Origin: a virus
Taxonomy: Duplodnaviria > Caudoviricetes
Length of the DNA: 64,000 nt
Reading direction: 5' to 3' (one strand)
IMG/VR virus record: IMGVR_UViG_3300037189_030782
Part shown: one piece after another, positions 17,209 through 60,845 of the stretch
Layout: each line of letters starts with the position of its first letter
Position numbering within the stretch: the stretch's first letter is position 1
Notes under the pieces: generated by a model
What the model was told of the DNA's origin: nothing
What the model saw: only the letters and a program-made list of their open reading frames with translations
Databases searched by the model: none
Position numbers and translations under genes: made by a program

Positions 17209-17946
17209 ATGGCGTATTGCAACTCTGATCTGTTGGAACAGAAATGGTTTACTTGGCTGTTAGCTAGCGCAACACCAGAGCTAGAACCTTTTCGCAATCA
17301 TGGTTTATTGTTTTCAAAACCAGACATCCACGTCCATAAGGATGGAGTGGCATTGTATAAGAACGGGAAGCCATTATTCGATCCATCAAGCCCATTGAAG
17401 CATCATTGCCTACCATTTGAGACTCCGGTATATTTCAGCACATGTGACGGCGAGATTGTTGATTTTTTCATTATACAACACTCAGTCCGGTTTGTCAATA
17501 CAGCTTCGCTAAAAAGCCTGTCAGAGGCATTCCCTATTATAGGTAAGCCATCTGAGAAAATCGTGGCAGAGTTAGAGCAAGAGGAATATATTCAAGAGAT
17601 TCCTGAACAGGAAGCTTGGCATGCTCTACTGTTCGACATAAAACAGATGTGTAGTGGCATAGCGCAAAAATTCAAACCTAATGGCGAGGAAGAGCATTTA
17701 GAATTAATACATGAAGCATTATTGCAGGTTTTACAGAAGCTTAAGAATAAAAAATTGAAATATATGCCTGGTAAGGCACCGGTATTTAACTTATTGACAA
17801 CTACCATATATAGGTGCCTTTACAGTGTGATGAATAAGCGTAAACATATAAAGGAAGGGCAATATAAGCTAGGTGCAGCTATACAAAATGGTAGAGCTCC
17901 CGCAAATTGTCGCAGTTTTAGAATAAATAAGCAAGGGCTAGATTGA
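17209..17946 (+). CDS. T4 gp55-like late-transcription sigma factor
   Basis: AYCNSDLL start; LIHEALLQVLQKL...YMPGK.PVFNLLTTTIYRCLYSVMNKRK echoes the gp55 core; near gp46/47. Confidence 0.6.
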   Translation: MAYCNSDLLEQKWFTWLLASATPELEPFRNHGLLFSKPDIHVHKDGVALYKNGKPLFDPSSPLKHHCLPFETPVYFSTCDGEIVDFFIIQHSVRFVNTASLKSLSEAFPIIGKPSEKIVAELEQEEYIQEIPEQEAWHALLFDIKQMCSGIAQKFKPNGEEEHLELIHEALLQVLQKLKNKKLKYMPGKAPVFNLLTTTIYRCLYSVMNKRKHIKEGQYKLGAAIQNGRAPANCRSFRINKQGLD

Positions 17947-18980
17947 TGATTAATCCAAGACGGCAAAAGGTAAATATTCAGCTTCCTAAAGCCGTTCGAG
18001 TGTACGTGGAGCAAAATAAAAATCAACAGAATGTTGCTGCGCCCAAGCCGCCTGTAATGAGGCAGCAACAGAATCCAAATTACGTCGCACCATCTGTGGT
18101 CAGATTAGATCCTAGTACTAGACAGCCAGTATCACAAATCATAGAACAAGCGAATGAGTCAAGAGTAAATCTTTATAATGCCAGCAGGGCTGGCGTCAAG
18201 TCGCCGTCTCAGCCGTCGTCGCAGCAAGTGACGAGACGGCGAGGGCCGGTAATCCAATATTCGAGTGACAAAGATTTACCAGTTCAGTCTGCTTTCATAA
18301 ATCGGTTGAAAGACGTGGGGGTAGGGCGTGCTTTGATGATAATTGGGAACGGACCGAGCATTGCTACCGTAGATCTGGCAGAGCTCAAGGATAAAAAACG
18401 GATCGATATTTGCAGTATTAATAATCCAGACACAAGAGTATGGCCAACTCAATACTGGTGCTTCTTTGATAGTAGCCAATATCGAAGGCATAAAGCGCTA
18501 TTGGCTGACTACAAAGGAATCATTGTCACAGGTAGCAGTATTGCGAATTGTCACGCAAATCATCTGAGGCTTAGGAATTTGGGACAACAAACGTTCAGCA
18601 CTGATCTACTAAGAGGATTAGCCATTGGTCGTAGCAGTGTCTTCGCAGCTTTGCAAGTGGCTGAATGGATGAAGTATGATGAGATCTTTGTGTTCGGTGT
18701 AGACATGGATGCTAAAGGTATCGATGGTAAATTGCATTTTTACGGGACTAATCCTGACGTGCCGCCTCATGTGCGTGTTGAGCGATTTAAGGCTGAGGCT
18801 GATTGTTTCATGCAAGCGGTTAATAATATCGCTGAGGAGCGGAGGCAGAACATTCATTTTTGTAGTGAATACAACACATGGCCGTTCGTTAAGCATTTCA
18901 GCAACCACTCTGCGCAAGAAGGACTAGAGTTGGCTATCGCTCGTTGGGGCGCTGATGTTAGCCCATCAGTTGAATTCTAG
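17943..18980 (+). CDS. Maf/DUF115 (MptE-like) fold protein with a Q/P-rich N-terminal extension; putative nonulosonate-type transferase
   Basis: IIGNGPSI, ICSINN, GRSSVFAALQVAEWMKYDEIFVFGVDM. Confidence 0.7.
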   Translation: MMINPRRQKVNIQLPKAVRVYVEQNKNQQNVAAPKPPVMRQQQNPNYVAPSVVRLDPSTRQPVSQIIEQANESRVNLYNASRAGVKSPSQPSSQQVTRRRGPVIQYSSDKDLPVQSAFINRLKDVGVGRALMIIGNGPSIATVDLAELKDKKRIDICSINNPDTRVWPTQYWCFFDSSQYRRHKALLADYKGIIVTGSSIANCHANHLRLRNLGQQTFSTDLLRGLAIGRSSVFAALQVAEWMKYDEIFVFGVDMDAKGIDGKLHFYGTNPDVPPHVRVERFKAEADCFMQAVNNIAEERRQNIHFCSEYNTWPFVKHFSNHSAQEGLELAIARWGADVSPSVEF

Positions 18981-19016: not shown

Positions 19017-19709
19017 ATGAATGGCAATCCGATCAGTAAGTTAGAACTCGACTGTTTTCAAATTAGCGAAATGTTAGAGTGCATGGAGTTCGCTGCGAAG
19101 CATAATTTGCCTGCTGTGGTAGTCCACCAGGGACTGAGTTCGGACGCATTGATCATAAGAAATAAGGTCAGAGGGAAGTTCAAAGTGGTAGTGCCAATAG
19201 ATTGGCCAAAAGGAGATCATTTCGGTAATCTAAAATTCCGCGGACTTACTATTGATAGTTTAGAGGGCGATGCGTTCGAGATCGTAATGAGTTCAGGTAA
19301 ATCAATAATGGATTTAAAAAATGAAGCTAGAGTGTGCACTGACTTCATTAGGACGTATCTCGGTCCGACGCAGGAGATCAGGTTCGTAGTTCCATCTACC
19401 AAGACTGATGTGGCATCTATTGCGGAGTTGGCCGGGTTGTTTCATGGTATTCGCAATCCTGCTTATGTGCGGTTTGGATTTGCTAGCAAAGCGCCTGCCA
19501 ATAAGGTCAGTCGATCATATAATATAGAGATCAGGACCAAATTGTTCGAAGCAGTCGGCGTTCCTATTAAAATGTGTGGTAATATTCAAACGATACAAGA
19601 CATTGATTTAATAGGCGCTGCTCGATATGGTGTCTCTTTGGCTTTTGCTAAAGTCATTATAAATGAGTATGCACTGGCTCAGGAAGAACGGCATAGTACC
19701 CCAGTGTGA
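19017..19709 (+). CDS. DeoC-like (deoxyribose-phosphate aldolase fold) TIM barrel, degenerate
   Basis: PIDWPKG, GDAFEIVM and IKMCGNIQTIQDIDLIGAARYGVS align to DeoC; the KTSTG Schiff-base Lys appears as RFGF. Confidence 0.6.
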   Translation: MNGNPISKLELDCFQISEMLECMEFAAKHNLPAVVVHQGLSSDALIIRNKVRGKFKVVVPIDWPKGDHFGNLKFRGLTIDSLEGDAFEIVMSSGKSIMDLKNEARVCTDFIRTYLGPTQEIRFVVPSTKTDVASIAELAGLFHGIRNPAYVRFGFASKAPANKVSRSYNIEIRTKLFEAVGVPIKMCGNIQTIQDIDLIGAARYGVSLAFAKVIINEYALAQEERHSTPV

Positions 19710-19765
19710 TCCTAGTATTGGTAGCACCGGGATATGTCTACTTTTTGTTACAGCAGGAGTTATAA

Positions 19766-20887
19766 ATGCAAAAGGGAAAATTCAATGTGGTAACAGACGG
19801 CAACTACGGTAGCACAGGTAAAGGTCATGTCAGCAGCGCCTTAGTGTACAGGTACAGACCTGAGATACTTACCAACACGAATATGGCGAATGCTGGCCAT
19901 ACAGCTGTATCACCAGATGGGAGCAAATTTGTCAGCAAGGCTTTACCAGCGCCAACTATAATGCGTAAATGGTTAGATAAATATGATCCGACCGTTATTA
20001 TGGGTGCTACTAGCGCATTTAAGCTTGACACGTTGCAGGCGGAATTAGATCAGGTTGGTCACGACATTAAGTTAATGATTCATGATCGTGCTGCTGTGAT
20101 CACGAAAGAGCATCAGGAGCGAGAAGCGTGTGGGTCAGATAGCACTAAACATGTGGCAAGCACAATGCAGGGTTGCGCCACCTGTCTATCGGACAAAATA
20201 TTGCGCAAGCAGGACGTCAAACTCGCTAGAGATTATGCTGATATAGCACCATTGATGGCAAGCAAACAATGTAGTGGAATGTCGCTTCCAGAATATCTTA
20301 CTACTATGATGCGTGGTGGGATGACAATTCTCCATGAGGGTAGCCAAGGGTTCGGATTAGATATTAATCATGGTAGTCATTATCCCCAATGTACTTCACG
20401 TAGCACCACCGCAATACAAAATCTTAGTGACCTTGGATTGCCACATCAGTGTATGGGTGATGTGTACTTAGTGCTTAGATGTCATCCTATTCGAGTTGGT
20501 AACGTAATCGAGGACGGTAAGGTCATAGGCTACAGCGGAGATTGTTACCCCGATCAACACGAGTTAACAATAGAGCAAATAGCAGCTGAATGTGGCGCTC
20601 CGCCTGATGTCATTCGTGGTATCGAAATTACCACGGTCACTAAGCGTCAGCGCCGGATGTTCTCATTTAGCGCGCAGCAGGCCAAACAGGCGGCTCTAAG
20701 CAATGGAGCTACAAAATTGGTACTGACATTCGTTAATTATATCGATTGGTCATGTTACGGGGTGAAGGAGTACAATAAGTTACCTCAAAAAGTGCAGTCG
20801 TTCGTGCACAAGATCGAAGATGAATTGAGGTTACCAGTAGTAATGGTAGGGACTGGGCCAGCTTATGATGACGTTTGCATCATCTAA
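19766..20887 (+). CDS. purZ: PurZ-type adenylosuccinate synthetase homologue (N6-succino-2-amino-dAMP synthase)
   Basis: GNYGSTGKG (Ser at PurA Asp13), NMANAGHT, EGSQG..LD, YPQCTSR, RCHPIRVG, YPDQHELT, TTVTKRQRRMFSFS, TFVNY. Confidence 0.8.
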   Translation: MQKGKFNVVTDGNYGSTGKGHVSSALVYRYRPEILTNTNMANAGHTAVSPDGSKFVSKALPAPTIMRKWLDKYDPTVIMGATSAFKLDTLQAELDQVGHDIKLMIHDRAAVITKEHQEREACGSDSTKHVASTMQGCATCLSDKILRKQDVKLARDYADIAPLMASKQCSGMSLPEYLTTMMRGGMTILHEGSQGFGLDINHGSHYPQCTSRSTTAIQNLSDLGLPHQCMGDVYLVLRCHPIRVGNVIEDGKVIGYSGDCYPDQHELTIEQIAAECGAPPDVIRGIEITTVTKRQRRMFSFSAQQAKQAALSNGATKLVLTFVNYIDWSCYGVKEYNKLPQKVQSFVHKIEDELRLPVVMVGTGPAYDDVCII

Positions 20888-21569
20888 TAAATTCGCATAT
20901 TTAGATGAGATTAGCGATGATCTTGACGAGGCCTTGGCTCACACCAAGGCCTTGTCCTTTTCACGCGTGTGGTATCGGAAACATAAGTATAAGTCATTTA
21001 CTCAGTTGTCTGACGATGAGCACAAGCATATTAAAGGAAAATTGATAGCATCGAACTTAGCATTGGTCGGATTTAATATCACGGTTGAGGACTTAACTAA
21101 TACAAAGCTAACTGGATTATTAGGTTATTATAAAGTCAAGTGGCTGAGCTTACAATTCGACAGTAGAAAGCACTACGATGATCATTATGATAGAGCGATG
21201 GAGTTCGCTAGTTCTTTAATACCATTAGGTGTGACTGTGGTGTGTCCGTATTATTGGTGGTTACTTAATCATTCAAAACAATTCAGGTCTTATAAGTTAG
21301 AAGCTATGTTGATCTTGAATAATATCAATATTAGTATTAGGAAGTCTTTGCCTATGAAAAGTGTCGCCATAATAGATACTGTTGATGTGTTACCTGGCCA
21401 TGGAACACAATGGCTAGGTGACGGTAAATTGGATTTTGCCGGATGCATTTCAGATATCGGCGACGGCGTGTTGGTGGGGTGTGCTCATTCTATGGTAGTG
21501 CGGCAAGGTAAGACTAAGGTAGATAACATGCATGTAGTATTAAGCAGGTTGGAGCGATATTATGATTAA
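20865..21569 (+). CDS. Xylose-isomerase/AP-endonuclease-2-like TIM barrel, degenerate
   Basis: N-terminal LDEISDDLDEAL...VWYR and C-terminal LGDGKLDF; metal ligands poorly conserved. Confidence 0.55.
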   Translation: MMTFASSNKFAYLDEISDDLDEALAHTKALSFSRVWYRKHKYKSFTQLSDDEHKHIKGKLIASNLALVGFNITVEDLTNTKLTGLLGYYKVKWLSLQFDSRKHYDDHYDRAMEFASSLIPLGVTVVCPYYWWLLNHSKQFRSYKLEAMLILNNINISIRKSLPMKSVAIIDTVDVLPGHGTQWLGDGKLDFAGCISDIGDGVLVGCAHSMVVRQGKTKVDNMHVVLSRLERYYD

Positions 21570-22309: not shown

Positions 22310-25300
22310 ATGGAAATAAATCTTAATGGTAGTGGTATCGGGATCAATAACTATTCCGAGGTCCTTGTAGTCGATATCGAAACACGCAACACTTTCTGTG
22401 AGAATAATTCATATAATCAGGATACCTTGTTAGCGTATGCGAATCAATTAGCTCATAAAAACATCACGACAGTGTGTAAGCCGATCCAGACAAATGCTGT
22501 CAGAATTACACAAGATAAGGTCAATAAAACAAGCAGGAGTACATTTCCGCGGATAACAGATAATGCGTTGCTTGGCAATTGCATCGATGATCAAGCCTTA
22601 GCGTGTCAGAATGAATCGACGCCGCTTGACGTACATTTTATCATAGATCTGAGCACACCGGCTTTACGGCAAGTTGGAGATCTTGCCACATATTTAGATC
22701 AATTGATCGTAAGCATGAAAGAGAGATATGGTGGAGGATTAAGGGCGAGCTACACTTTCTTAACCCCAATTGATAATGTTATTGATACGTCGACTCAATG
22801 GACCATACAGCATTTGGCAGGACCCAGTATTATCACCACAGGTGACTCCGCCGGGATCACATATCATCTTCCGGTAGCCTGTGCAACAGTGAGTTCATTG
22901 AAAGCATCATATCATAATGGCAACCTTGGAGTAGGAGCAACATTGACGGCTAGTGAGAATCGCACCTTGATGAGGATAGACGGCTATCAGCCACTGCTTA
23001 ATGATCGTATATTAGTCAAAGATCAATTGCTTCAGCAAGCTAATGGGATTTATGTCGTAACTGATTTAGGTAGCGGCAGTAAACCGTATGTTCTCACCAG
23101 GTCTAACGATTTCGACGGCAGTTCTGCTGCAGTAACACCTGGGTGGGCGACGACAGTTAGCAAAGGATTGACCAACAGTGGCTTGTCTTTCGTGTCAACT
23201 GGCGTGGGGACTTTAACTTCCGGAACTCATGCAATCTTGTTTGGTGTCGACGCAGTGGTGTTTACTAATAGTAGTCTGGTCAAGTATTCGTGTGTTACAC
23301 CGTCAATTGTCGATTATCTAAACGTGAACAATTCGAAGCTGCTGCTGACTACGAGCAATAGTCGGATCTGTCCGTATGATATAGTTATAAACAATTTAAT
23401 AAGGCAATCGTCATTCTCTTACGGTACGGTAATAACAGATAGCGTGGTAGTGCGGGCTAGTGACATCAAGACGTGTCGATTTGTTAGAAGATCACTGGCG
23501 TATTTGCAGTTATTCGTCATCTCTAATCGCAGCTTTACACTGTCTGACAACAGCGTCATAAATTTTGAAGGCTCTTTGGATAATGCGGTAAATTGCAGCG
23601 TTAACATTAGTCCGATTGTCACCAATGGACAGTTGACATCAGACTTTAGTAAAGCTTTTAATGTTTATCGCAATCATGGCGTTGAACCGTACACTGTGTT
23701 CAATGCAGCTGAGTTATTCAGCATAATCCATGGTCAAATCAAAAAGTACTACGATGGGCTATTCATTAGTGTCGCCAATAATGTCGATAAACAATACCTA
23801 TATCAGACTGGCCAATATGTTAAATCGGTCAAAGGCAATAATGTGGCTAATTTGGCCATTTCCTCTGCGGTCGATTTTAGTGCCTATGATACGGTTAATG
23901 ACTTTTTAGCGGTCGTATCAGGCAATCAACTGCAAGTGATAAAGTTGGCTGAGTATAGGCTGGTCGCTAAGTACACGTATGATTACGAGATAGTAGGGTT
24001 AGCGTTCGATAAGTATCTGCAACTTAGTTTGTTAACCCAAGTCGGCACTACGTTATCGGTGTTATCGATCCAAGTGTCAGATTTATCAGCAGTTACAGAA
24101 AAATATGTTTTAGACATTTCTTCATATGGCGTCATACCGGTAGGCAGCATAAGGTTTCATAGTCCGAAAGCGGTCGATGTAGATTTCTTGACCTTTGCTG
24201 TCAATGGTGATGGTGGATCTAATCTACGATATACTATAGCGTTGCGGCAACTTGATGGCAACCAGGCCACAGAAGTTCTACCGCATGTTGGCTCATTTGT
24301 CGGGTTCGATTCATTTACCAATCGGTTTTACATTTTAGATGCGCTCACTAAAAAGATATTGAGATTTGATGGTCTTGCCGAATATTTCTTTGATGGATTG
24401 AGTAACGCCACGCAGGTTTATGATGTTGCTTTAATCGAGGTGACGCTCGATGAAGATAGTGGCCATTTGATTGGGTTCAATGGTACCAGTTGGCTCGACA
24501 TAGATCTCGCTGGCGCTAGTGTTGCACTTGGTATCACTCAGGAAGTCGATAACTTTATCGGCATTAAACTTAACTTGTCGTGCCCTGAAGATTATTCACT
24601 TTTGTCGGTTCATAACGTGCCATTTGGTGGCATTAGCAACTGGTCGAACCGCAATAAATCTTTCGATAATATTCTGGTGTCCAATGGTGGATCTACATAC
24701 AGGCAATATCTAGATTTGATAGCTGGTAGCACCTACACGCTTACGATTGATGCGGTTATTTTAGATCAAGTAAGCAGTCAGGGCAATTTTTGTGTTACGA
24801 TAGGATTCACTGGTGTCTCATATCAATATCCGATACATCGGACTGGCCCAGTTACTTTATTGTTTGAAGCTGTGGGTGGTCCGTGTCTGATTGAGCTTTT
24901 TGTCAGTCCTTTTTATGATAGCAAGGAGATAGCGGTTAATAATCTTATTGTGTGCGAGACCAAAGAAATAGTGTGTGGACTGGTCGAGAACATAGAAATG
25001 ACACTAAAGTGGGGCACTCCTGAATCTGTCGATATACCTCGTTTACCATTGAACATATTTAACGCATTTTTGAAATTAATTTATCGGAATCCCACAACAC
25101 CATCAGAGTTTAAGAATACATTTCTACTGCCCACCTGCGAAGGGCATACGTGCATTGGCGATCCACCAAAAGTCGTTAGTGTCACATGCAATTATGGCGA
25201 TACTGTTGACTTCTGGAAGCAACAGGGATTAGGCACGGTGGCGCAAGTCAGCATCTTGTCGCAGAATCTGACGAAGAAGTTTATGGAAGGAGTGACTGAA

Positions 25301-28300
25301 AATAAAACAAGCAGTGTGGAAGGATTCGCCAATTGGCTTTGGAGCATTCCGCAAAGTAAGAGCGCAGTGATTAATGACGAATTAACCGCTTATTTTCCCA
25401 GTTACGAAGATCCAGTTAACATTCTGGATACCATAGAAGTCTACATCTTAGCGAATCAGGTTTATCCGAGTGGCGATTTTCCTCCTAAGCATTGTGACAA
25501 TTACCCAGCCATGTTTGAGGATCCCGGCGTCAATCTGTCGGTAGAGATCAGCTATGATGACCAAAGGAAAGTTAACCACACTTTCTCTAAGAGCTTTAAT
25601 CGCAATGACATCTTTACGACTTATGGGGACTTCACACGGAATCTTCCAAGTCAATGGGACACGTTAACCAGCTTAGGTAATGGAGTGCGTGGGAACAAAG
25701 CGGCGTGGCACGTGGCTCAATTTATTTTGGATACACCAGATGGTAAGCAGCCAGATGGCGCAGCTACGTTAAATCAGTGCTCTAAGCCATTAAAAGTAGT
25801 CCTCAGTGGCACTGGTTCTATGTATGTGTTTCCCGGCGCTAATAAACCAGCGCCTACGGTAGTAGCGTCTGGCAATGCCTATAATGTGAGACCATGTCAA
25901 CCGCAAATGGGATTTAAAATGGTCAGCGCTGGCAGAGCTGATTATAGTGTGGTGTCATTCAGTCAGCCTAATGCAACTGGCGGGACTTACAAGGTGACAT
26001 TCCAAAAAAACGGCGTAAATTCTCCGTTCGTGTTTGAATTAGCAAATGGTGAAAAGCCAGAGATGCTCGTTAAGCTTTTAGCGTCTAGGGCTGGTTTTGT
26101 GACAGCGGCAAGCGATATTGGTCTAAGTGGAACAGGCACAAAGAGCGACCCGTTCGTGCTGGCATTCGTCGGCAGGTCTCAAGGTATAGGTTATAGCATT
26201 ACGAGCACCGACGGTAGTGGCCTGAGTGGTGCAGGATCATTTGACACTGAAGTGATAGCTTCAGGTGGCGCACAACGTGATATCTTCACTGTAAAGTTTA
26301 AAAATAGCTTAGAGATACAAAATTCGCCGATTAACACACCTACTTTCAATGAATATTATGCTACATTATACCTTGTATATGGCAACAGCACTTATTCATC
26401 TCCAGATGCTACTGCCACTTACGTGAGCAGTAGCGTAGGTACTACAGCATCAGCTATATTGAATTTCATTAACACTATGGTCGATTCAAGTGGCAAATCT
26501 TTCGGAACCACTTACGGCGTTGATTTTGTGAGTGTCAGCCCAGGTATAGATCCAACTTATGGTCCGTTTACTATAGGATTTAGCGCTCCCGCCAAGGATG
26601 AGAAAGTACAACTGTACTTTAAAACTATCCTTACAAACGGTACAAATCGCAACACGATCGATAGTAGGAATAACCTATCGTATGACCCAGTGGACCTAGT
26701 GCATAAATCACAATTTGGTAGCAAGACTGCTGCATCGCAAAAGCTTATGGTCAACGCTAGTGGCGGATCATTCATATTAGGGCTTCCGGCTAACACTGGC
26801 ACCGTCACACCGCGTGGCATTTATCTGCTAGTGTCTTACGAATTCCCTAATACATCGACGTATACAGCCAGTGCACCTTTTAACATAATTGTATCTGGGA
26901 TTGATAAAGATGCCAATGGTCAAGATAATCAGTATCAGGTGGCAATCACGCCTGACCGATGTAACACTACTAGTGCTGGTTGCGATGCGTTTTTAGCTTG
27001 CGACCCGAATGTCAGCAAAAACATTCAATATTTAAAGTGGTCGGTACGTGGAATTAATGGTGCTTGCGCTAATAACGTTTATACCTCGTTCAGTCAAAGT
27101 CTCGATGTGCCAATGAGTGATTGGATCAGTAAAATAGTCAATTCGTTTGATTTAACATTAACTACGGTTTATCCATTTGCACCTAATGTGAATTTGTCTG
27201 ATGAGCCGATACCTAGTTCTGTACCTAGCTGCGATATTAATTGCATTGTCAGGGTATTTGCTGACAATGGCACCACAAATACTAACACGTTCACGCAGGT
27301 TTTTAGTCAGGTTATTAAGGCGACTGCAGGTAAAGAATTTACTAAGAAATTTAAGGTGACAGTGCCCGAAGCGGGATATGTCTACACACGACCTATCCAG
27401 GCTAATGCTGCAGCTTCCGATGTTTTAGCAGCTGTTAAGGATCTCAAGGACACTGCGCCTTCTGATGCTGTGGTTGAATTAGATACGGTTGAGAAGGATG
27501 GCAGTAATTTTAGCTATATCTTAAAATGGAATGCCGGTTATGCAATTGAGCCCGTGATTGTCGACACTGCCGGTTTGAGCGGTGCGACTGTGCAATATAC
27601 TAACACAGCTTCAGGCTCTTATGAGATATGCAAGCAGGTTTTAACGTTACAGAACGCAACGGATGGTTATTTTAGCGTTAACGTGGCTTATGGGAGTAGG
27701 AATACTACAACAGACGCTATAAGTATACCATTCCGAGATGTTGATTTGCAATATGCGCTGCTTAATACCAGAGGCGTATTTCCTGTCGATTCTCTCACTG
27801 TTACACAAGTGCAAACAGTAGATCCTAAGCTCGTGAAGATCTACAACATTGAATTCGCGCCTTTCATGGGACCAGTGCCGTTGTTAGAATCAATCTCTGC
27901 TGGTACGATCAGGTGCTATCCTGTTGCGATACCGCCGTTGCCGCCGCCACCGTTTAAGCTGCCTACATATAGCTGTGTAGAGGGTCCGGAGGATCTGTTA
28001 TTCTCTTTTTGTGGCATCACTGGAGACGGACCAGAGTCTATTGCAGCCGTTGGCTATTCGGCCAAGCAGCTGTCAAGTGTGAGCACCAGTATTAAAGCCA
28101 AGGCGGAATTAGTGAATCCTGAGCAGAGACTGACATTACGGCAGATGATTTTAAAGACCAATAGTGGTAACCCTAATGACTTCTTGGGTTACCAATATGA
28201 TAATTTAAGTGGATCAGTCAGGAGGGTTGGCTTAGAAACGGTGCTTGAGACCCAAACTAGTTATATGATTGTCAAAAAGGTCGTGTACGGTGTGTCTTAT

Positions 28301-28483
28301 AACTTTAAGTATAGCGATGGAGTTTATGAAGATGCTATGATTGACAAAATGTCATATAATCTCTATGTTAGAGTAAGGGCTCAGACCAATCTTCTGCCCG
28401 GTAGGATTCAACCCAAGCATTACACACCTAAGGCCGCTTCTTACTTGCTGGCCCCTGCGTCAAGCTTAAATTGTTTAACTTGA
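22310..28483 (+). CDS. 2057-aa virion protein (tail fibre/baseplate-associated, multi-domain)
   Basis: DRILVKDQ...ANGIYVV...LTRSNDFD tail-fibre motif; vWA-like VHFIIDLS; repeated NAxxGxF modules; T/S/G/N-rich. Confidence 0.75.
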   Translation: MEINLNGSGIGINNYSEVLVVDIETRNTFCENNSYNQDTLLAYANQLAHKNITTVCKPIQTNAVRITQDKVNKTSRSTFPRITDNALLGNCIDDQALACQNESTPLDVHFIIDLSTPALRQVGDLATYLDQLIVSMKERYGGGLRASYTFLTPIDNVIDTSTQWTIQHLAGPSIITTGDSAGITYHLPVACATVSSLKASYHNGNLGVGATLTASENRTLMRIDGYQPLLNDRILVKDQLLQQANGIYVVTDLGSGSKPYVLTRSNDFDGSSAAVTPGWATTVSKGLTNSGLSFVSTGVGTLTSGTHAILFGVDAVVFTNSSLVKYSCVTPSIVDYLNVNNSKLLLTTSNSRICPYDIVINNLIRQSSFSYGTVITDSVVVRASDIKTCRFVRRSLAYLQLFVISNRSFTLSDNSVINFEGSLDNAVNCSVNISPIVTNGQLTSDFSKAFNVYRNHGVEPYTVFNAAELFSIIHGQIKKYYDGLFISVANNVDKQYLYQTGQYVKSVKGNNVANLAISSAVDFSAYDTVNDFLAVVSGNQLQVIKLAEYRLVAKYTYDYEIVGLAFDKYLQLSLLTQVGTTLSVLSIQVSDLSAVTEKYVLDISSYGVIPVGSIRFHSPKAVDVDFLTFAVNGDGGSNLRYTIALRQLDGNQATEVLPHVGSFVGFDSFTNRFYILDALTKKILRFDGLAEYFFDGLSNATQVYDVALIEVTLDEDSGHLIGFNGTSWLDIDLAGASVALGITQEVDNFIGIKLNLSCPEDYSLLSVHNVPFGGISNWSNRNKSFDNILVSNGGSTYRQYLDLIAGSTYTLTIDAVILDQVSSQGNFCVTIGFTGVSYQYPIHRTGPVTLLFEAVGGPCLIELFVSPFYDSKEIAVNNLIVCETKEIVCGLVENIEMTLKWGTPESVDIPRLPLNIFNAFLKLIYRNPTTPSEFKNTFLLPTCEGHTCIGDPPKVVSVTCNYGDTVDFWKQQGLGTVAQVSILSQNLTKKFMEGVTENKTSSVEGFANWLWSIPQSKSAVINDELTAYFPSYEDPVNILDTIEVYILANQVYPSGDFPPKHCDNYPAMFEDPGVNLSVEISYDDQRKVNHTFSKSFNRNDIFTTYGDFTRNLPSQWDTLTSLGNGVRGNKAAWHVAQFILDTPDGKQPDGAATLNQCSKPLKVVLSGTGSMYVFPGANKPAPTVVASGNAYNVRPCQPQMGFKMVSAGRADYSVVSFSQPNATGGTYKVTFQKNGVNSPFVFELANGEKPEMLVKLLASRAGFVTAASDIGLSGTGTKSDPFVLAFVGRSQGIGYSITSTDGSGLSGAGSFDTEVIASGGAQRDIFTVKFKNSLEIQNSPINTPTFNEYYATLYLVYGNSTYSSPDATATYVSSSVGTTASAILNFINTMVDSSGKSFGTTYGVDFVSVSPGIDPTYGPFTIGFSAPAKDEKVQLYFKTILTNGTNRNTIDSRNNLSYDPVDLVHKSQFGSKTAASQKLMVNASGGSFILGLPANTGTVTPRGIYLLVSYEFPNTSTYTASAPFNIIVSGIDKDANGQDNQYQVAITPDRCNTTSAGCDAFLACDPNVSKNIQYLKWSVRGINGACANNVYTSFSQSLDVPMSDWISKIVNSFDLTLTTVYPFAPNVNLSDEPIPSSVPSCDINCIVRVFADNGTTNTNTFTQVFSQVIKATAGKEFTKKFKVTVPEAGYVYTRPIQANAAASDVLAAVKDLKDTAPSDAVVELDTVEKDGSNFSYILKWNAGYAIEPVIVDTAGLSGATVQYTNTASGSYEICKQVLTLQNATDGYFSVNVAYGSRNTTTDAISIPFRDVDLQYALLNTRGVFPVDSLTVTQVQTVDPKLVKIYNIEFAPFMGPVPLLESISAGTIRCYPVAIPPLPPPPFKLPTYSCVEGPEDLLFSFCGITGDGPESIAAVGYSAKQLSSVSTSIKAKAELVNPEQRLTLRQMILKTNSGNPNDFLGYQYDNLSGSVRRVGLETVLETQTSYMIVKKVVYGVSYNFKYSDGVYEDAMIDKMSYNLYVRVRAQTNLLPGRIQPKHYTPKAASYLLAPASSLNCLT

Positions 28484-29163: not shown

Positions 29164-30117
29164 ATGATTAAAATATGCGTGATTGGTCACAGCGGATTTC
29201 TCGGGCGTGCTGTGATAGACCAATTCAATAAATGTGACATCGATGTTATAGGCGTAAGCAAAAGCCACGGAGTGGACGCAACTGATGAAAGACAATTAGA
29301 AGATGTGATAACGTCTGACGGTATTACGACTGTTGTAAATTTAGCTGCGGTGTGCGGTGGAATAGGATTAAATCAGATACGACCAGCAGAGTTATGGTCT
29401 ACCACCAATAATATAAACGGAGCTGTGCTAAAAGCTTGCAGCAAGACAAATGTCAGATTATTGATGATTGGTACGGCGTGCTCTTATGGCAGTCTTACGC
29501 CGACGCCATTTAGGGAAGATGACTTGATGAAGTATGGCTATCCTGAGGCAACGAATGCTGCTTATGGCGTAAGCAAGCTAAATGGATTATTCGGATCGAT
29601 GGCCTATCGGCAGCAGTATGACTGTAAGATTACGTATGCAATACCAGCGAATTTGTATGGTCCGTTCGACAATTTTGATCTTGGAACTAGCCATGTTATT
29701 CCAGCGTTAATAAGAAAAATCGATGAAGCTAAAACAGCTGGCACACCATTAGTGGTATGGGGCACTGGTATAGCTTCCAGAGAGTTCCTATATGTGAGAG
29801 ACTGTGCGAAGGCCATAACGCAATTGTCCATAATGCCATATGAGATGGTAGGGTTAGGACCATATAATATCGGTAATGGGCAGGAAGTAGCAATTGCAGA
29901 TTTAGTGCAAGCATTATGCAATGCAATGGACTTTAAAGGCGAAGTGATTTGGGATAGCAGCAAACCTGACGGACAATTAAGGCGTTGTTTAGATGTTTCA
30001 AAGTTACATAAATTAGGCTTTGCCGCTGAGACGGCTCTTGCTGAGGGGTTATTGAATACGATCAAGTATTACCAACGGATGGTGAAAAATGGGAGTGGAA
30101 GTACGAGTAACAATTAG
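29164..30117 (+). CDS. fcl: GDP-L-fucose synthase
   Basis: GFLG, AAVCGGIGLN, YGVSK, PANLYGPFDNFDLGTSHVIPALIRK, VWGTG.ASREFLYV, WDSSKPDG. Confidence 0.92.
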   Translation: MIKICVIGHSGFLGRAVIDQFNKCDIDVIGVSKSHGVDATDERQLEDVITSDGITTVVNLAAVCGGIGLNQIRPAELWSTTNNINGAVLKACSKTNVRLLMIGTACSYGSLTPTPFREDDLMKYGYPEATNAAYGVSKLNGLFGSMAYRQQYDCKITYAIPANLYGPFDNFDLGTSHVIPALIRKIDEAKTAGTPLVVWGTGIASREFLYVRDCAKAITQLSIMPYEMVGLGPYNIGNGQEVAIADLVQALCNAMDFKGEVIWDSSKPDGQLRRCLDVSKLHKLGFAAETALAEGLLNTIKYYQRMVKNGSGSTSNN

Positions 30118-30487
30118 CGTCGGAGAATTATTAGACAAGTTGAGCATTTTAAGAATCAAAAAGCACTTCTTCAAAGACGACGATAAATTACACAACATTA
30201 AACAAGAATATAATTTACTAGCACAGACGTGGCAAGGTATGCATTCACATATCAAGCCAGTTATGCTTACTGAATTATATAATCTATATGATCGTTTATG
30301 CACTGTCAATAAAGCTATCTGGGATATGCAAAATAATATCAGAGAGCACGAAAGAGAGCAATTGTTTGATGATGAATTTATACAGTTGGCTCGGCAACTG
30401 TATATCAACGATGACTTAAGATCATCGATAAAGAAACAAATAAATATTAAAATAGGTAGTGCCATAGTAGAAGAAAAATCATTCTAA
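30089..30487 (+). CDS. DUF6165-like protein
   Basis: ISVGELLDKLSILRIK...VNKAIWD...FIQLAR..YI.DD.R..IK..IN...S.IVEEKS. Confidence 0.75.
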   Translation: MGVEVRVTISVGELLDKLSILRIKKHFFKDDDKLHNIKQEYNLLAQTWQGMHSHIKPVMLTELYNLYDRLCTVNKAIWDMQNNIREHEREQLFDDEFIQLARQLYINDDLRSSIKKQINIKIGSAIVEEKSF

Positions 30488-30496
30488 AGGCCAAAA

Positions 30497-31102
30497 ATGA
30501 CCACACCAAAAAGAAGCGCAAGCGCAATAGGTAAAAGCAACGTGCGGATGGGCAAAACGCATGAAAGAAGGATGGCACACCTATTAACTGAGTTTACCGG
30601 TCAGGAATTTAGAAGGCGGCGCGTTACTGGCCGAGACCAAGGTACTATAGACAGGGAGAGCACGTCGGATGTAATATCATCCAGAGGTTTGTGTGCGTTT
30701 AGCATCGAAGGTAAAGCTGGCAAAGGATATAGTCTTGATGCACTTATGTCTACACCAGACACTGCATTATTCACCAAATGGTGGTTCCAGGCCACATATG
30801 ATGCTAACCTTTTGACAGCGGCAGTCAAGCGTCCCATCTACCCGATGGTCATGTTCAAACCGATTCCAGCGTGGGATTGGGTGGCTGTGTCGAAAAAAGG
30901 TTTTTCTGATAAGCTGATACACAAAGGTGTTTTTCCAGTGCTTTTATTTGAAGGATTTAACAATCGCCAATATACTATGTCTGTATCACATTCAGATCGT
31001 ACTAAGCAGATTATCGAACAGGCTTTGGATGACGTTGTATTCTGTCGATGGAAATCGTTTGCTGAAAATATAGTATCAGATTCACTGTTCTATGAGAGGT
31101 GA
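30497..31102 (+). CDS. Putative Holliday junction resolvase (PD-(D/E)XK)
   Basis: GKTHERRMA...SDVI...FSIEGK. Confidence 0.7.
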   Translation: MTTPKRSASAIGKSNVRMGKTHERRMAHLLTEFTGQEFRRRRVTGRDQGTIDRESTSDVISSRGLCAFSIEGKAGKGYSLDALMSTPDTALFTKWWFQATYDANLLTAAVKRPIYPMVMFKPIPAWDWVAVSKKGFSDKLIHKGVFPVLLFEGFNNRQYTMSVSHSDRTKQIIEQALDDVVFCRWKSFAENIVSDSLFYER

Positions 31103-31105
31103 TTT

Positions 31106-32156: not shown

Positions 32157-32157
32157 T

Positions 32158-43588: not shown

Positions 43589-44758
43589 ATGGAATCTATT
43601 TTCGTTCATGCCGCCTACAATCGCAGTGGTAGGCCTGAGTTCGTAGAGATCAGCACCAAAGCTGTGATCAAAAGGATAGGTCTTTTCTTAGCAGGATCCA
43701 AAGCGAAATTAAAAGAAGTATTTGACAAGATCGATAAGTTAAAGGGTTTTATCGATTCAGCTTTAGCTAAAAACATCCGGGTCGGTTATGATGATGTAAG
43801 GACGGCTAGGCTGTTCCAGATTTCCAATGTACAAATGTGTTATTACTTCGAAGGTGGCTGTAAGCCTGATGGTGACGCTGATTTTAACAGATACAGGCAT
43901 TTAATGGCTAGGTGTATCAATGCCTATGAGACCATAAATCAACGTGGTATATTTATTAATCATAAGCGTATGTCGCCGGTTTTTTCTTTAGAGACTTTTA
44001 CGAGCCGCACTAAATGCTCTGTGTTCGACCTTCAGAATTATCCGCATCACGATTGTGTATCACATGATAGGAATGACGAATCATCTGTCTATTTGCAGTT
44101 AGACTGGATTTCAGCTGATGTGCGCATGGCTGGATTACTGTCCGGAGACGAAGGGCTTATAAATTGCTTTTCGGATTCTGACCCATACCAGTATATGGCA
44201 GATAGAGCTAATGAATTCGATGAAGTGTTAACCAGAGAACAATGTAAAATTAGGCTTTTAAAATCTATCAATAGTTTAAACGGGCATGACGTAATTGTGA
44301 AGTCATGCTTTCCTGGGTTATCAAACTGGATTTTGGATGTGAGTCACAGATTGATGTTACCCGACAGTGTGTTTTACACGATTTTAGGTCGGGCTTATAA
44401 GCAGATAGCTGATCGATCCAAGAACGCTATTATGAATGCAATGCTGCAGGGTAGTGTAGCTCATGGCATGCACAATGTAATAGCGAAGGTACAGCATGAT
44501 TTCCCGACTTATTTCATCTGTGACATGCATGATTCTGTCGTGTTAAGTGTTCCTAATCATGTAGGGGTGTTGAATGAAGTGATAGATAAAGTGGCAAGAA
44601 TAATGGTAAACCCGTTTAATGGTATTTTACCAGATGATCCATCATTTCCTGTCAGAGTCAATGTGGGCAAGAAGTGGAAAAAATGGAAGCCGTATAAGAT
44701 CATAAGGGGATATGCAGATGATTTCGCGCAGGATCCAGATGAAGCGCCAGAAGCGTAA
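43589..44758 (+). CDS. Short family-A DNA polymerase (polymerase domain only, atypical motif B)
   Basis: Motif A QLDWISADVR, motif B REQCKIRLLKSINS, NAMLQGSVAH, motif C DMHDSVV. Confidence 0.75.
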   Translation: MESIFVHAAYNRSGRPEFVEISTKAVIKRIGLFLAGSKAKLKEVFDKIDKLKGFIDSALAKNIRVGYDDVRTARLFQISNVQMCYYFEGGCKPDGDADFNRYRHLMARCINAYETINQRGIFINHKRMSPVFSLETFTSRTKCSVFDLQNYPHHDCVSHDRNDESSVYLQLDWISADVRMAGLLSGDEGLINCFSDSDPYQYMADRANEFDEVLTREQCKIRLLKSINSLNGHDVIVKSCFPGLSNWILDVSHRLMLPDSVFYTILGRAYKQIADRSKNAIMNAMLQGSVAHGMHNVIAKVQHDFPTYFICDMHDSVVLSVPNHVGVLNEVIDKVARIMVNPFNGILPDDPSFPVRVNVGKKWKKWKPYKIIRGYADDFAQDPDEAPEA

Positions 44759-47974: not shown

Positions 47975-48739
47975 ATGGGTAGAAAGAAATCGTGGAAAGA
48001 CCAGTTAAAGGTCGAAGATGACTCTAAACCCGATTGGAAAGCCGTTAGAGACGCAATTGAACCTGTAAAACATCGGAGTTCGGCTTCACATGAGGAACCC
48101 AAGAAGGAATTAAAGACCAAAACGTTAGAGGCTAAGACTGAAAATCAAAAGCATTATATGAAAATTGTGCGCGAGTGCACTGTGACATTTTGCTCTGGTG
48201 TAGCTGGCACTGGCAAAACGTATATTGCATGTGGAATTGGCGCTCAGATGTTAATGGACAATAAGATCAATCGTATTATCATAAGCAGGCCAATCGTTGA
48301 ATGTGGACATCGCCTAGGTTTCTTACCTGGCGATTTGCATGAAAAAACTGATCCTTATATGAACCCGATGTTTGAGTCGTTGGGTGACTTTATAGACCCT
48401 GTAAGTTTAAAGAAGCTATTAACAGATAAAGTGATAGAGAGCGTTCCACTTGAGACCATGCGTGGTCGCACGTTCCATAACTCTTTAATGATTTTAGATG
48501 AGGCGCAGAACGTCACCAAGACGCAAATGAAAATGTTCCTGACTCGCATGGGCAAGGATAGTAAAGTGGTGATTTGTGGAGACACTAATCAAAGCGACTT
48601 AACTCATCAGGACATAAACCCGTTACGATGGGCGATGGCTTTACTAGATCATGATCAAATTGGTAAGGTAGTATTGACAGAGGCAGATATACAAAGGCAT
48701 GGTCTGATCAGTTACATTTTAACTGCATTGGGGAATTAA
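47975..48739 (+). CDS. phoH: PhoH-family ATPase
   Basis: GVAGTGKT, ISRPIVE...LGFLPGDL.EK, MRGRTF, ILDEAQN, TRMG..SK. Confidence 0.93.
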   Translation: MGRKKSWKDQLKVEDDSKPDWKAVRDAIEPVKHRSSASHEEPKKELKTKTLEAKTENQKHYMKIVRECTVTFCSGVAGTGKTYIACGIGAQMLMDNKINRIIISRPIVECGHRLGFLPGDLHEKTDPYMNPMFESLGDFIDPVSLKKLLTDKVIESVPLETMRGRTFHNSLMILDEAQNVTKTQMKMFLTRMGKDSKVVICGDTNQSDLTHQDINPLRWAMALLDHDQIGKVVLTEADIQRHGLISYILTALGN

Positions 48740-49287
48740 TGGTAGAACTTGTGCTGGAGCGTTTGGAGAACAATTTTTATGACTTGCCAGTCAAGCAGAC
48801 AGTCGGCGCTGCATCCTTAGACTTTCATGCATGTTTAGACAGGGACTTATTTGCTATTGATGAAAATGGCAAACGCCACTGGTTTAAATGCGTAGGAGAA
48901 TTTCGTAATTACGATAAGCTTAGCGTAGCTAGGCTATCGGCGCTTCGCTGCGGGCCGACCAAAATCGGCGTAAAGCCTGGCGAAACTATCATGATTCCTC
49001 TCGGCTTTAAGACTAAATTCTCGTCAGACTACGTTCTTTTGCTTGCTATTCGCAGTGGCGCAAGTTTGCGAGGGTTAAGATTATCGAATAGTGTGGGTAT
49101 AATCGACAGTGATTATCGCGGAGAATTGATGGCAGTTATCACTAACCACAATGAAAATATTCAATATATTGAAAACGGCGAAAGAATAGTGCAGGGGCTA
49201 TTGACTCATGCGCTAAAAATCAACGTGCTTGAGGGAAAAGTTGATGAAACCGCCAGGGGAGTTGGCGGTTTCGGCAGCACGAATTAA
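48739..49287 (+). CDS. dut: Trimeric dUTPase with an internal insertion
   Basis: GAASLD, RSG, GIIDSDYRGE, GERIVQ, RGVGGFGST. Confidence 0.9.
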   Translation: MVELVLERLENNFYDLPVKQTVGAASLDFHACLDRDLFAIDENGKRHWFKCVGEFRNYDKLSVARLSALRCGPTKIGVKPGETIMIPLGFKTKFSSDYVLLLAIRSGASLRGLRLSNSVGIIDSDYRGELMAVITNHNENIQYIENGERIVQGLLTHALKINVLEGKVDETARGVGGFGSTN

Positions 49288-57944: not shown

Positions 57945-58001
57945 TCACATTTTGGGCATTGACAGGGCAAAGATAATCCAGAGTATAATTTGGAGAATCA
58001 A

Positions 58002-60845
58002 ATGGCCGTGTACCTTAGCCCTGGTGTATTTACAAAAGAAGTCGACCTAAGTGCGCTGCCTGAAGGCAATGGTGGTGTGATCCCAGCGTTCGTCGGTGCA
58101 TGCAGCAGGGGACCTATTGGAGTCCCGACTTTAGTAACTAGCGCAGCACAAGCGATTGACACGTTCGGCGATCCGATCAGCTACTTGATGCAATCCGTAC
58201 TAGCCTTCTTCGAGCAAGGCACTTCCTGTTACATCCAGCGCGTAGCAGTTGAATACAGTGATATTCTCCCAGATCCAGTGAAGCAGATAGCTGTTGATTC
58301 AACTACCAAGACTAACGGGTGGGGCAGGATTCCACTATTCCAGGGTCCAGATGTTGCTCGTTTACCGTTTAAATTGATTGATTCAAGCAATCCAGTAACG
58401 TTTTCTGCTGCAGTCGTCTCGACCCCAACATTTTACCAATATCACGTAGCCACTTACGGCACCACCACTGCTGCAATGACGGTTACTGGCACATACACTT
58501 ACACTGCTCAACGTACTTTTTCGGTTAAAATAGTTGGCGCTCCAAGCGAACCAACTGCTGGCGCCAGAATCGGCGGAGCGCTCTACGAAGTGTACGATGG
58601 AGTGCAGTCTTCTCCTGTACTGTCTGGTGCATTTTCAACTAATAATCACGGTAATGGCCCTTCGGCGGCGATAGCTTTAACCTACACCACTGAGGCTGGT
58701 GAAGATGTTGTTACAGGCTTATCGTTCACAGTAACTGTGTCGAGTGGTGAACTCCATGAGGATGACCTGTTCGTCTTCACCGCTGCGCCTGATAATCGCA
58801 AATTCTACGTGGCTGTCGAGCACGTGACTGGCGCCATGATCACTGTTCCAGCCGGTACGTACACTTCAGCTAGCGCATTAGCGACTGCGATTAACAATCT
58901 ATTGGGCGCTGAAGATTACATCTGCACTACCAGTGACACAACGCCAGCTGTGGCGGTCCTTCAAAGTGTTGATTCAGGTGCTTTGATCCAATTGGTTGAC
59001 AGCATTGCTTTCGGCAACACTGTTGGTGTTCCTAACTTTACACTCGACCAGGTGCGTGGCCATTTCACAGCTACGAATGCTGGCCCTTACATCATAGGGG
59101 CAGCCAATAACAACGTAAGACTTGATGTGATTTCAAGCACCGTTAAGTCATTTAACTTTACGTTGCCTTCTGGCACTTACACTGCAGCCGATCTGGCATC
59201 GCAATTGAATAACCATGCAACAATCGACGGCGTGAGCTATTTCAACGCTATTGCAGTCGAATTGCCTGGTAGTGATGTCAATGGTGACACTTACGTGCTA
59301 ATCAGCACGACCACTAACAATAACACCGCCACGATCAAGCTTTACGCAGATTACACTTTCCTTTCTACATTGCAGTTCGCTGCAGAATTAGGCATCAACA
59401 GTCCATTTGTTAGAAGCTATCGTGGATTCAATGATACACGGACAGTTCTACCAACGCCAAGCTTGCTTGATCCAAGCATTCCTAATAGCTGTGCAACTGA
59501 TCCAACTGGCGATCAATGTGCAAAAGATACTAACTACTATTCTGAGATAGTCGGATTCTTTATAGCGCCATCCGCTGGCACTTGGTCGTCGGGTTACAAG
59601 ATTAATCTGACCAGTAATTCGACTAGCCCAGGGTCGCCGGTAGGCAGATACTCATTGCAGATCAGCCAAAGCAGCGGGCAAGTCGTAGAGTCTTATGATG
59701 AAGTCTACTTTGATCCTACTGCTGACCGCTACATTGCTAATGTGATCAATCCAGGAAGCAAGTACGGCGGGGTTACTGGCAGTACTTACATCAACTGGGA
59801 AGCTCGGCCTTCGACGGTCGGACCAGGCGAAACTAGGTTACCATCGCCCAAGTACAATGCTGCGTTTAAGGGTGGCCAGAATGGCATTCCTACTGGTGCC
59901 TATTCTAACTACTTGGATGCTGCGATTGTGGGCAATCCAGCTTTAGCATCTGGCCTTTACGCTTTCCAGAATCCGGAATCGATTGATATTAGTGTGTTGG
60001 CTGTGCCAGGGATCACATCTGGTGCAGTAATCGGCACAGCAATTGCAGTTTGCGAAAGCCGTGGCGATGTGCTAATGTTAGTTGATCCCCCATTCGGGTT
60101 ACGTCCGCAGCAAGTTGTGGATTGGAGCAATGGCGTTCTGCCAGATGGTTCGACCAGCAATGCTTTAAACACTTCGTACGGCGCGCTTTACTGGAGCTGG
60201 ATTAAGCGATTTAATCAATTCACCAGTGAATACGAATGGGTGCCGCCGAGTGGTTACGTTGCAGCGGTGATCGCTAGGACTGCCAGGGATTACGAACCAT
60301 GGTATGCTCCTGCTGGAATAACTCGTGGCAGGTTAAATTCTGCTCTGGCGGTCGAGTACAGTCCTACCGAGGGCGAACGTGATTTGCTTTACGGCAACGG
60401 AAACGTTGTAAACCCGATCGTCGACTTCCCTCAAGACGGTATTATCGTTTTCGGTCAACGTACCTTACAACGTGTGCCTACTGCTCTTGATAGGGTTAGT
60501 GTGAGACTGTTGATGACGTTCCTGAAGAAACTGCTGACACGCACTTTACGTCAGTTCATCTTCGAACCTAACGACACTATTCTGCGTGCGCAGGTCACAA
60601 ATGTACTTGATCCTTTGCTCGGTGATGTGCTGAATCGCAGGGGAGTGACAGCTTACAAGATTGTTTGTAACAACACTAATAACACCCCTGAAAGAATCGA
60701 TCGTCAAGAGTTATGGGTGTCGATCTTTGTTAAACCTACCAAGGCTGTCGAGTTCATCGCTCTGAATTTGGTCGTTCTTCGCACAGGTGCGTCATTTACC
60801 GCCGAGGAAATCTTGGCGGCTGGTGGCGTAGTTTCCACTAACTAA
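58002..60845 (+). CDS. Contractile tail sheath protein (gp18-like) with a large inserted domain
   Basis: YLSPGVFTKEVDLS; WVPPSGYVAA, PWYAPAG..RG.L, RDLLY....NPI, GQRT, RVSVRLL, FEPND. Confidence 0.95.
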   Translation: MAVYLSPGVFTKEVDLSALPEGNGGVIPAFVGACSRGPIGVPTLVTSAAQAIDTFGDPISYLMQSVLAFFEQGTSCYIQRVAVEYSDILPDPVKQIAVDSTTKTNGWGRIPLFQGPDVARLPFKLIDSSNPVTFSAAVVSTPTFYQYHVATYGTTTAAMTVTGTYTYTAQRTFSVKIVGAPSEPTAGARIGGALYEVYDGVQSSPVLSGAFSTNNHGNGPSAAIALTYTTEAGEDVVTGLSFTVTVSSGELHEDDLFVFTAAPDNRKFYVAVEHVTGAMITVPAGTYTSASALATAINNLLGAEDYICTTSDTTPAVAVLQSVDSGALIQLVDSIAFGNTVGVPNFTLDQVRGHFTATNAGPYIIGAANNNVRLDVISSTVKSFNFTLPSGTYTAADLASQLNNHATIDGVSYFNAIAVELPGSDVNGDTYVLISTTTNNNTATIKLYADYTFLSTLQFAAELGINSPFVRSYRGFNDTRTVLPTPSLLDPSIPNSCATDPTGDQCAKDTNYYSEIVGFFIAPSAGTWSSGYKINLTSNSTSPGSPVGRYSLQISQSSGQVVESYDEVYFDPTADRYIANVINPGSKYGGVTGSTYINWEARPSTVGPGETRLPSPKYNAAFKGGQNGIPTGAYSNYLDAAIVGNPALASGLYAFQNPESIDISVLAVPGITSGAVIGTAIAVCESRGDVLMLVDPPFGLRPQQVVDWSNGVLPDGSTSNALNTSYGALYWSWIKRFNQFTSEYEWVPPSGYVAAVIARTARDYEPWYAPAGITRGRLNSALAVEYSPTEGERDLLYGNGNVVNPIVDFPQDGIIVFGQRTLQRVPTALDRVSVRLLMTFLKKLLTRTLRQFIFEPNDTILRAQVTNVLDPLLGDVLNRRGVTAYKIVCNNTNNTPERIDRQELWVSIFVKPTKAVEFIALNLVVLRTGASFTAEEILAAGGVVSTN

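Follow-up and report, generated by a model that had tools for sequence, protein, structure and literature searches.

In the literature that we searched, phages with 2-aminoadenine (Z) genomes are siphoviruses and podoviruses with genomes below ~85 kb, and two sets of helper genes are described for them: DatZ and MazZ, which accompany the synthase PurZ, and DutZ and DmtZ, which accompany PurZ0. A survey of PurZ among the viruses of NCBI describes the PurZ and PurZ0 groups only (PMC12884076), and our full-text searches found no report of a link between jumbo or huge phages and either PurZ or diaminopurine. We analyzed a stretch of 64,000 nucleotides of DNA from an uncultured freshwater phage (Duplodnaviria; Caudoviricetes; IMG/VR record IMGVR_UViG_3300037189_030782), referred to here as the window, which carries on its + strand an open reading frame (ORF) at 19766..20887 that starts with ATG and encodes 373 amino acids (aa). 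Judged from the ORF list together with family and tree evidence, this ORF very likely encodes a PurZ-type succino-amino-deoxyadenylate synthase. We also consider it reasonably probable, taking the parts of the claim jointly, that the product is an ATP-dependent PurZ that aminates deoxyguanosine monophosphate (dGMP) and feeds the triphosphate of the Z deoxynucleoside (dZTP) into phage DNA in which adenine is partly or wholly replaced.

The PurZ-type gene and its substrate pocket

The PurZ motifs quoted in a preliminary description of this ORF are all found in its translation: GNYGSTGKG (aa 12-20), NTNMANAGHT (37-46), RCHPIRVG (238-245), YPDQHELTIEQ (261-271), TTVTKRQRRMFSFS (289-302), and TFVNY (321-325). 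The protein belongs to the PurA superfamily (Pfam PF00709, E 2.9e-33) and matches PHROG 1211, '2-aminooxy adenylosuccinate synthetase' (E 3e-56); together with its match to phiVC8 PurZ (138 bits, E 3e-39), these matches lie far above chance. That enzyme heads the ranking of relatives with solved structures in the PDB, followed by S-2L PurZ (131 bits), Pyrococcus horikoshii PurA (120 bits), and PurZ0 (7VF6; 70 bits). Among NCBIfam models the best is that of PurZ (NF038379, 211.4 bits, curated cut-off 300 bits), ahead of archaeal-type PurA (NF003295, 199.6 bits against a cut-off of 368) and TIGR00184 (PurA; 125 bits against 395), so that by hidden Markov model (HMM) membership the protein is formally in neither the PurZ nor the PurA family. 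Its predicted structure (AF2, pLDDT 88.6) reaches TM scores of 0.77-0.80 to 6FKO, 7ODX, and 5K7X, the top fold match being the P. horikoshii PurA structure. Among 50,697 records of isolated phages, 201 matches were found, all below 36% identity and all belonging to known PurZ or PurZ0 siphoviruses or podoviruses; a megablast search of the PurZ locus against the same records gave no match. A Shine-Dalgarno box, AGGAG (19755..19759, +), can be read directly 6 nt 5' of the ATG, and scans for promoters and terminators gave no signal above shuffled expectation.

To read individual residues, the query and its relatives were aligned with five PurZ, four PurZ0, and, from PurA, 20 archaeal sequences of the Asp type and a long bacterial-type one, and the columns that correspond to the substrate contacts of S-2L PurZ (PMC8342488) were examined. 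The catalytic Asp of PurA, 99% conserved as Asp13 in true PurA (PMC12884076), had been described as a Ser in this protein, and the alignment with archaeal and long PurA places Ser16 in exactly that column, within a Y-G-S-T-G-K-G that is the same as in S-2L. The PurZ-specific contacts of S-2L are S23, T273, and Q308, with N297 of phiVC8 at the Q308 position (PMC8342488); they correspond to Ser16, Thr289, and Asn324 of the query, to Asp, Gly, and Asp in Asp-type PurA, and to Ser, Thr, and Asp in PurZ0. Asn324 thus aligns to the Asp of the T-x-L-D guanine-recognition motif of PurA, and the loop residues T289 and K293 are PurZ-type where PurA has Gly and Gly; the diagnostic columns of Asp-type PurA read D/G/G and T-x-x-D-K. 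The earlier suggestion of an ATP-type pocket, with Asn rather than Asp, agrees with the alignment of F322, N324, and Y325 to F295, N297, and Y298 of phiVC8, the Asn position being Asp in both PurZ0 and PurA. In phiVC8, F295 and Y298 stack against the adenine of ATP (bioRxiv 2025.10.22.683976). The dGMP pocket is also kept (N42, A43, G44, H45, T46, S132, T133, R147, Q194, C209, T210, R243, and V244), including, at V244, the equivalent of an S-2L position that is said to clash with a 2'-OH (PMC8342488). With Ser16, Thr289, and Asn324, the stacking pair F322 and Y325, and the whole dGMP pocket conserved, the signature of an ATP-type PurZ is complete. PurZ0, by contrast, is reportedly a GTP user, as Tong et al. 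are said to have found in 2023. One sentence in the survey of NCBI viruses gives the nucleotides in the reverse order (PMC12884076); since PurZ structures with bound ATP contradict it, we take it as a slip.

Compared with the described enzymes, the protein shares with phiVC8 PurZ (DgsS; PDB 6FM1, 6FKO, 6TNH) and S-2L PurZ (7ODX) the short PurA fold, the Ser for Asp replacement, the TTVTK loop, and all dGMP contacts, and the groups are sisters in the tree described below. The nucleotide pocket is N-F-C-N-Y in phiVC8 and T-F-V-N-Y in the query, both F-x-N-Y and ATP-type. The identity is, however, just 32-33%, the query has insertions relative to phiVC8 at about aa 246-256 and 272-286, and the phiVC8 and S-2L genomes measure 39-45 kb against an estimated ~360 kb here; unlike in those phages, a gene for a protein with a deoxyribose-phosphate-aldolase (DERA) fold adjoins the PurZ-type gene, and neither DatZ nor MazZ is adjacent. 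PurZ0 of Gordonia and Arthrobacter phages (Archimedes, 7VF6; Ghobes; Wayne) has in common with the query the Ser-type P-loop and the TTVT loop, and its phages are missing DatZ and MazZ (PMC12884076), as is the searched part of this phage. The DutZ and DmtZ of these phages are paralleled by a Dut-family gene in the window and by an NDT gene beside PurZ in relatives. PurZ0 nevertheless has Asp at the nucleotide-base site and G-S-E-A-K-G where the query has Asn324 and G-S-T-G-K-G, is 25-28% identical to the query, and falls outside the clade (support 100/99) that unites the query with classic PurZ; moreover, the Dut gene of the window lies 28 kb from PurZ and has no sign of changed specificity, in contrast to the linked DutZ.

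The P. horikoshii-type PurA (5K7X/2D7U; NF003295) resembles the query in its compact fold (TM 0.80), its length, and its phosphate and P-loop residues, but differs in its catalytic Asp, its G-T-V-T-G loop, and its T-x-x-D-K motif, and is split from the query by a branch with 100/100 support. The best-scoring relative from an isolated phage is the PurA-like protein of Bacillus phage vB_BpsS-140 (MH884512; 206 bits, 35% identity), which shares its insertions and an N-F-A-N-Y motif with the huge-phage clade defined in the next section. This phage is a 55-kb siphovirus, however, and its protein, with G-S-E-G-K-G and A-T-V-T-G, lies on another branch of the 60-row clade.

Phylogeny and the huge-phage clade

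In a maximum-likelihood tree of 88 rows (LG+C20+F+G4), the Ser/Gly-type superclade has a support of 100/100. All classic PurZ fall within it in a 60-row clade (100/99), together with a huge-phage clade that contains the query (23 rows, 100/99), and PurZ0 lies outside this 60-row clade, as a clade of its own (100/100) from which the query is excluded. The huge-phage clade is the sister of the classic PurZ that are linked to DatZ and MazZ (85/90) and is not nested among characterized members. Because the tree places it between PurZ and PurZ0, both of which have been shown experimentally to act on dGMP, it is flanked by dGMP-using enzymes. Clustering with archaeal-type PurA had been named beforehand as the outcome at odds with a PurZ; a union with Asp-type PurA is rejected by the approximately unbiased (AU) test (delta lnL 75, p 0.003).

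A search of a collection of 5.8 billion proteins gave upwards of 1,700 relatives at E <= 1e-10. The best 119 besides the query itself are 49-88% identical, are all metagenomic, and in many cases lie on contigs of 100-440 kb. G-S-[CTA]-G-K-G is present in 120/120 of the nearest homologues, the Ser being invariant, and 67 columns, catalytic residues included, are invariant over 37 clade members. The closest prokaryote match, in a search of one genome from each of 185,579 species, is only 40% identical (a Sorangium chromosome) and the clade members are all on viral contigs, from which we conclude that the clade is viral. Four complete IMG/VR genomes with direct terminal repeats carry a PurZ of this clade, and they measure 355.8, 395.5, 370.8, and 393.2 kb. 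The gene is intact and conserved, and its product is a member of an unclassified sister branch of PurZ. In one relative (IMGVR_UViG_3300045256_000294, L132:6872-10510), the PurZ homologue is a 1212-aa ORF with two intein-like insertions, which interrupt the catalytic motifs N-A-G-H|T and Y-P-Q|C-T-S-R; each insertion is bounded by C...HN, and LAGLIDADG-like motifs occur in the first. Inteins typically reside within the catalytic motifs of genes that are essential.

Two further groups of homologues occur on contigs of metagenome-assembled genomes (MAGs). At 18 MAG-contig loci (L017, L045, L050 ... L091), assigned to Acidobacteriota, Binatia, Nitrospira, Chloroflexota, Cyanobacteriota, Archaeoglobaceae, and Sorangium, a Ser-type PurA-like gene (G-S-E-G-K-G) lies within 3 kb of a Dut-family gene, an arrangement that echoes the PurZ0-DutZ pair. 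Another 27 PurZ-like genes (L018-L044), with Q-A-G-S-C-G-K-G and N-F-A-Q-Y, form a tight group on contigs that reach 431 kb and belong to Clostridia and Bacilli MAGs from animal guts; a search of the 3 kb around these genes gave neither DatZ nor MazZ nor Dut, and the contigs may be unrecognized phage.

Helper genes, neighboring genes, and phage context

Helper genes were sought with Pfam models in a near-identical IMG/VR record (G001), the records of 11 relatives, and three positive-control phages, of which phiVC8 and S-2L were positive. In agreement with the preliminary description, no DatZ or MazZ is recognizable in the window, either by Pfam scans or by jackhmmer over all six frames, whereas the same jackhmmer search was positive beside 32 classic-PurZ loci of IMG/VR. 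DatZ (PF12917) was detected in phiVC8 and S-2L and, among the relatives, only in G011, as a 204-aa protein (E 5e-6 to DatZ) encoded ~200 kb from PurZ. DUF550/MazZ was found in S-2L only, MazG above its threshold in G010 alone (G009 gave a match below it), and DUF5664 in G017 only; G008, G009, and G016 encode generic HD proteins that are not DatZ-like. DatZ, DUF550, and DUF5664 are absent from the complete genomes G008, G009, and G010, the first of which is the only complete genome of the query's sub-lineage. Of the two possibilities left open earlier, that the helpers lie elsewhere in the genome or that the pathway is organized differently, we favor the latter, because G008 and two more complete relatives lack these families and because other neighbors of PurZ are conserved.

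One candidate for a helper function is encoded at 48739..49287 (+). This paralogue of the Dut family (trimeric dUTPases) keeps the five motifs of the family, and ~45 aa are inserted behind motif 1. Apart from this insertion the motifs are canonical and give no sign of purine specificity; the variant is a candidate deoxynucleoside triphosphate (dNTP) pyrophosphatase, for which we also considered a role as an analogue of DutZ. In the relative G012 (L187, L193), an insertion-bearing variant occurs alongside a canonical Dut of 144 aa, which makes the former a distinct paralogue rather than simply the phage dUTPase; the comparison also took in G015 (L192).

The genes around PurZ are conserved in the order SbcC-like, ORF182, ORF421 (-), ORF251, ORF345, ORF230, PurZ, ORF70, and ORF144 in 11-15 relatives, depending on the gene. 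The immediate 5' neighbor, ORF230 (19017..19709, +; 230 aa), has a homologue directly 5' of PurZ in 15 relatives and is predicted to form a deoxyribose-phosphate-aldolase-like TIM barrel. It has no match in Pfam (DeoC included), PHROG, or NCBIfam, and its family profile has none among PDB sequences; by fold, however, its AF2 model (pLDDT 85) finds only DERA-family structures among the top 50 in the PDB (TM 0.70-0.74, E ~1e-9), engineered derivatives of E. coli DERA among them, and its Atlas model matches DeoC clusters at a TM of 0.83. Judged by position, predicted beta-6 carries an invariant Arg152 and beta-7 carries Lys185, so in the model the canonical Schiff-base Lys may be replaced by Arg152. 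We considered whether ORF230, as a genuine aldolase, would drive the hydrolysis of dAMP by breaking down deoxyribose 5-phosphate, an idea weakened by the Arg at the expected Schiff-base Lys.

Further upstream, ORF345 (17943..18980, +) encodes a conserved protein of 345 aa with weak MptE-like and sialyltransferase-like matches. Between the homologues of ORF345 and ORF230, 11 relatives carry an ORF of ~130 aa of the NDT family, found with Pfam PF05014 and a custom HMM, with the catalytic Tyr and the nucleophile motif G-S-H-x-E-x-G (Glu). The same two models gave no match at E <= 1 in the window, where the gap between ORF345 and ORF230 is just 36 bp, and a jackhmmer search with the DmtZ of Ghobes also gave none. 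DmtZ is a dAMP hydrolase/transferase of the NDT family that is tied to dZ phages (PMC12884076), and an independent tie between the NDT family and dZ phages is given by NDT-M2, which prefers dA (bioRxiv 2025.10.22.683976). On the 3' side, an ORF at 20865..21569 (+; 234 aa) overlaps the PurZ stop; its assignment to AP_endonuc_2 or xylose-isomerase-like TIM barrels, in spite of a high feature score, is a lead only. The 88%-identical relative has a 237-aa gene at this position, and no homologue was found near PurZ in other relatives. A conserved layout with PurZ between two TIM barrels thus holds in part only, the 5' barrel being conserved and the 3' ORF restricted to the sub-lineage of the query.

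The near-identical record G001 (75,177 bp) maps to window positions 3430..78606, ~14.6 kb past the window end, and its CheckV completeness of 21% puts the genome at ~360 kb. A tail sheath gene (57990..60845, +; 951 aa, phrog_23, E 1e-73) indicates a contractile-tailed (myovirus-type) virion, and the window also encodes a baseplate hub, UvsX, a DnaB-type helicase, an SbcCD-like nuclease, and PhoH. The T4-like jumbo myovirus context proposed earlier is therefore borne out by the tail sheath, the T4-like recombination and helicase genes, and the size estimate; the polymerase, however, is of family A, where a T4-type enzyme would be of family B. It is a minimal domain without an exonuclease domain (43589..44758, +; 389 aa). 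Family A is the sole DNA polymerase family found in the phage group, as in most Z phages, and the four complete relatives yielded no polymerase of family B. The exonuclease-less domain is conserved at ~380-416 aa in relatives, with the exception of G011 and G013, which have a full-length PolA instead (open frames of 966 and 820 aa). PurB is encoded by one of the four complete relatives and Gmk by none. The stretch is present in 20 freshwater or lake DNA sequencing runs from several studies, with no RNA run listed. Just 3' of the PurZ cluster, an ORF of 2057 aa (22310-28483) has a weak match to virion structural proteins and homologues in six relatives (25-31% identity). It is followed by a glycan-building island (29164-39264), in which a sulfotransferase-like ORF accompanies two fcl/gmd-like genes for nucleotide-sugar epimerases/dehydratases and a double glycosyltransferase of 642 aa.

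Proposed pathway and its alternatives

We propose that the PurZ-type enzyme would convert dGMP and Asp, in an ATP-dependent reaction, to N6-succino-2-amino-2'-deoxyadenylate (dSMP), which host adenylosuccinate lyase and kinases would carry on to dZTP. The family A polymerase of the phage would then incorporate dZTP, and adenine in the ~360-kb genome would be partly or wholly replaced by 2-aminoadenine. Removal of dATP or dAMP, if any, would fall to other proteins, such as the Dut-family variant, or to PurZ itself with dATP as phosphate donor, or, in relatives, to the NDT-family gene beside PurZ. Beyond the identity of the enzyme, we infer which substrate it prefers, that its product is used for DNA, and how far replacement goes. 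That the product is destined for phage DNA appears likely by analogy, because PurZ has no other known use and is linked to NDT in relatives; replacement may be partial or complete, since no dATP-clearing enzyme was recognized. More tentatively, and with somewhat less than even confidence, we suggest that a whole contractile-tailed lineage with T4-like recombination genes and genomes of 356-395 kb might build Z-DNA without DatZ and MazZ. It would rely on its own clade of PurZ and on the conserved DERA-fold protein as a partner, joined in most members by a hydrolase/transferase of deoxynucleoside monophosphates from the NDT family.

Several observations weigh against this proposal. The NCBIfam PurZ score is under its cut-off (211 against 300 bits), with the archaeal-type PurA model close behind (200 bits), and the predicted fold, equally close to P. 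horikoshii PurA and to PurZ, does not discriminate between them. Ser-type PurA homologues are found on many bacterial and archaeal MAG contigs, so that the Ser signature alone may fall short of proving a Z genome. Some of these homologues may come from misbinned phages or prophages, as has been suspected before (PMC8342488). The query phage and its 88%-identical relative have no NDT gene at the PurZ locus, the searchable share of the query genome is ~21%, and the window, G001, and three of the four complete relatives yielded no DatZ/YfbR-like HD, DUF550/MazZ, MazG, or DUF5664 protein. Complete replacement of adenine in small Z phages is owed to helpers of the DatZ/MazZ type.

The lack of recognized dATP- and dGTP-clearing helpers in these records would fit PurZ chemistry without a full Z genome, whether as partial replacement, as a dGMP sink that reshapes nucleotide pools, or as consumption of dATP as the phosphate donor. 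S-2L PurZ accepts dATP as a donor, and loss of datZ/mazZ lowers the Z content in E. coli (PMC8342488); in addition, three of 17 PF00709 proteins on metaGPA contigs of the unmodified class fall outside the PurA cluster (bioRxiv 2025.10.22.683976). We nevertheless regard this as unlikely, given that PurZ is strictly conserved through the whole huge-phage lineage and is linked to the NDT family in relatives, that PurZ0 phages contain Z though they have neither DatZ nor MazZ (PMC12884076), and that non-homologous dATP-clearing enzymes could hide among the many unannotated genes.

The family might instead act on another substrate, such as ribo-GMP, dIMP, or XMP, to yield a product that is not for DNA, as could be imagined for an unclassified clade with ~33% identity to characterized PurZ and with DERA-fold and MptE-like neighbors that are unknown from other Z phages. 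Every listed dGMP contact of S-2L is kept, however, including V244 (PMC8342488), and the DERA-fold and NDT-family neighbors point to deoxyribose chemistry, which makes such a substrate improbable. We give still less credence to an auxiliary metabolic PurA that would convert IMP to adenylosuccinate and raise the AMP and ATP supply during infection. Such a role could draw on the fold and most catalytic residues, which are common to PurA, on the P. horikoshii enzyme as top fold match, and on the 200 bits of the PurA model; it is opposed by the change of the catalytic Asp to Ser in the query and in 120/120 nearest homologues, by the change of the guanine-recognizing Asp to Asn, by the PurZ-type loop with T289 and K293 in place of G/G, and by the AU test, which rejects a grouping with Asp-type PurA.

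For Z-aware sequencing, the phage offers a concrete target in the lake viromes in which it recurs. If an ATP-dependent PurZ does supply dZTP to its DNA, the locus would be a source of new enzymes for Z-DNA production. Z-DNA would then extend to huge phages, no known Z genome would come near their 356-395 kb in size, and a third organization of the pathway would be suggested, with the DERA-fold protein as an added candidate component.

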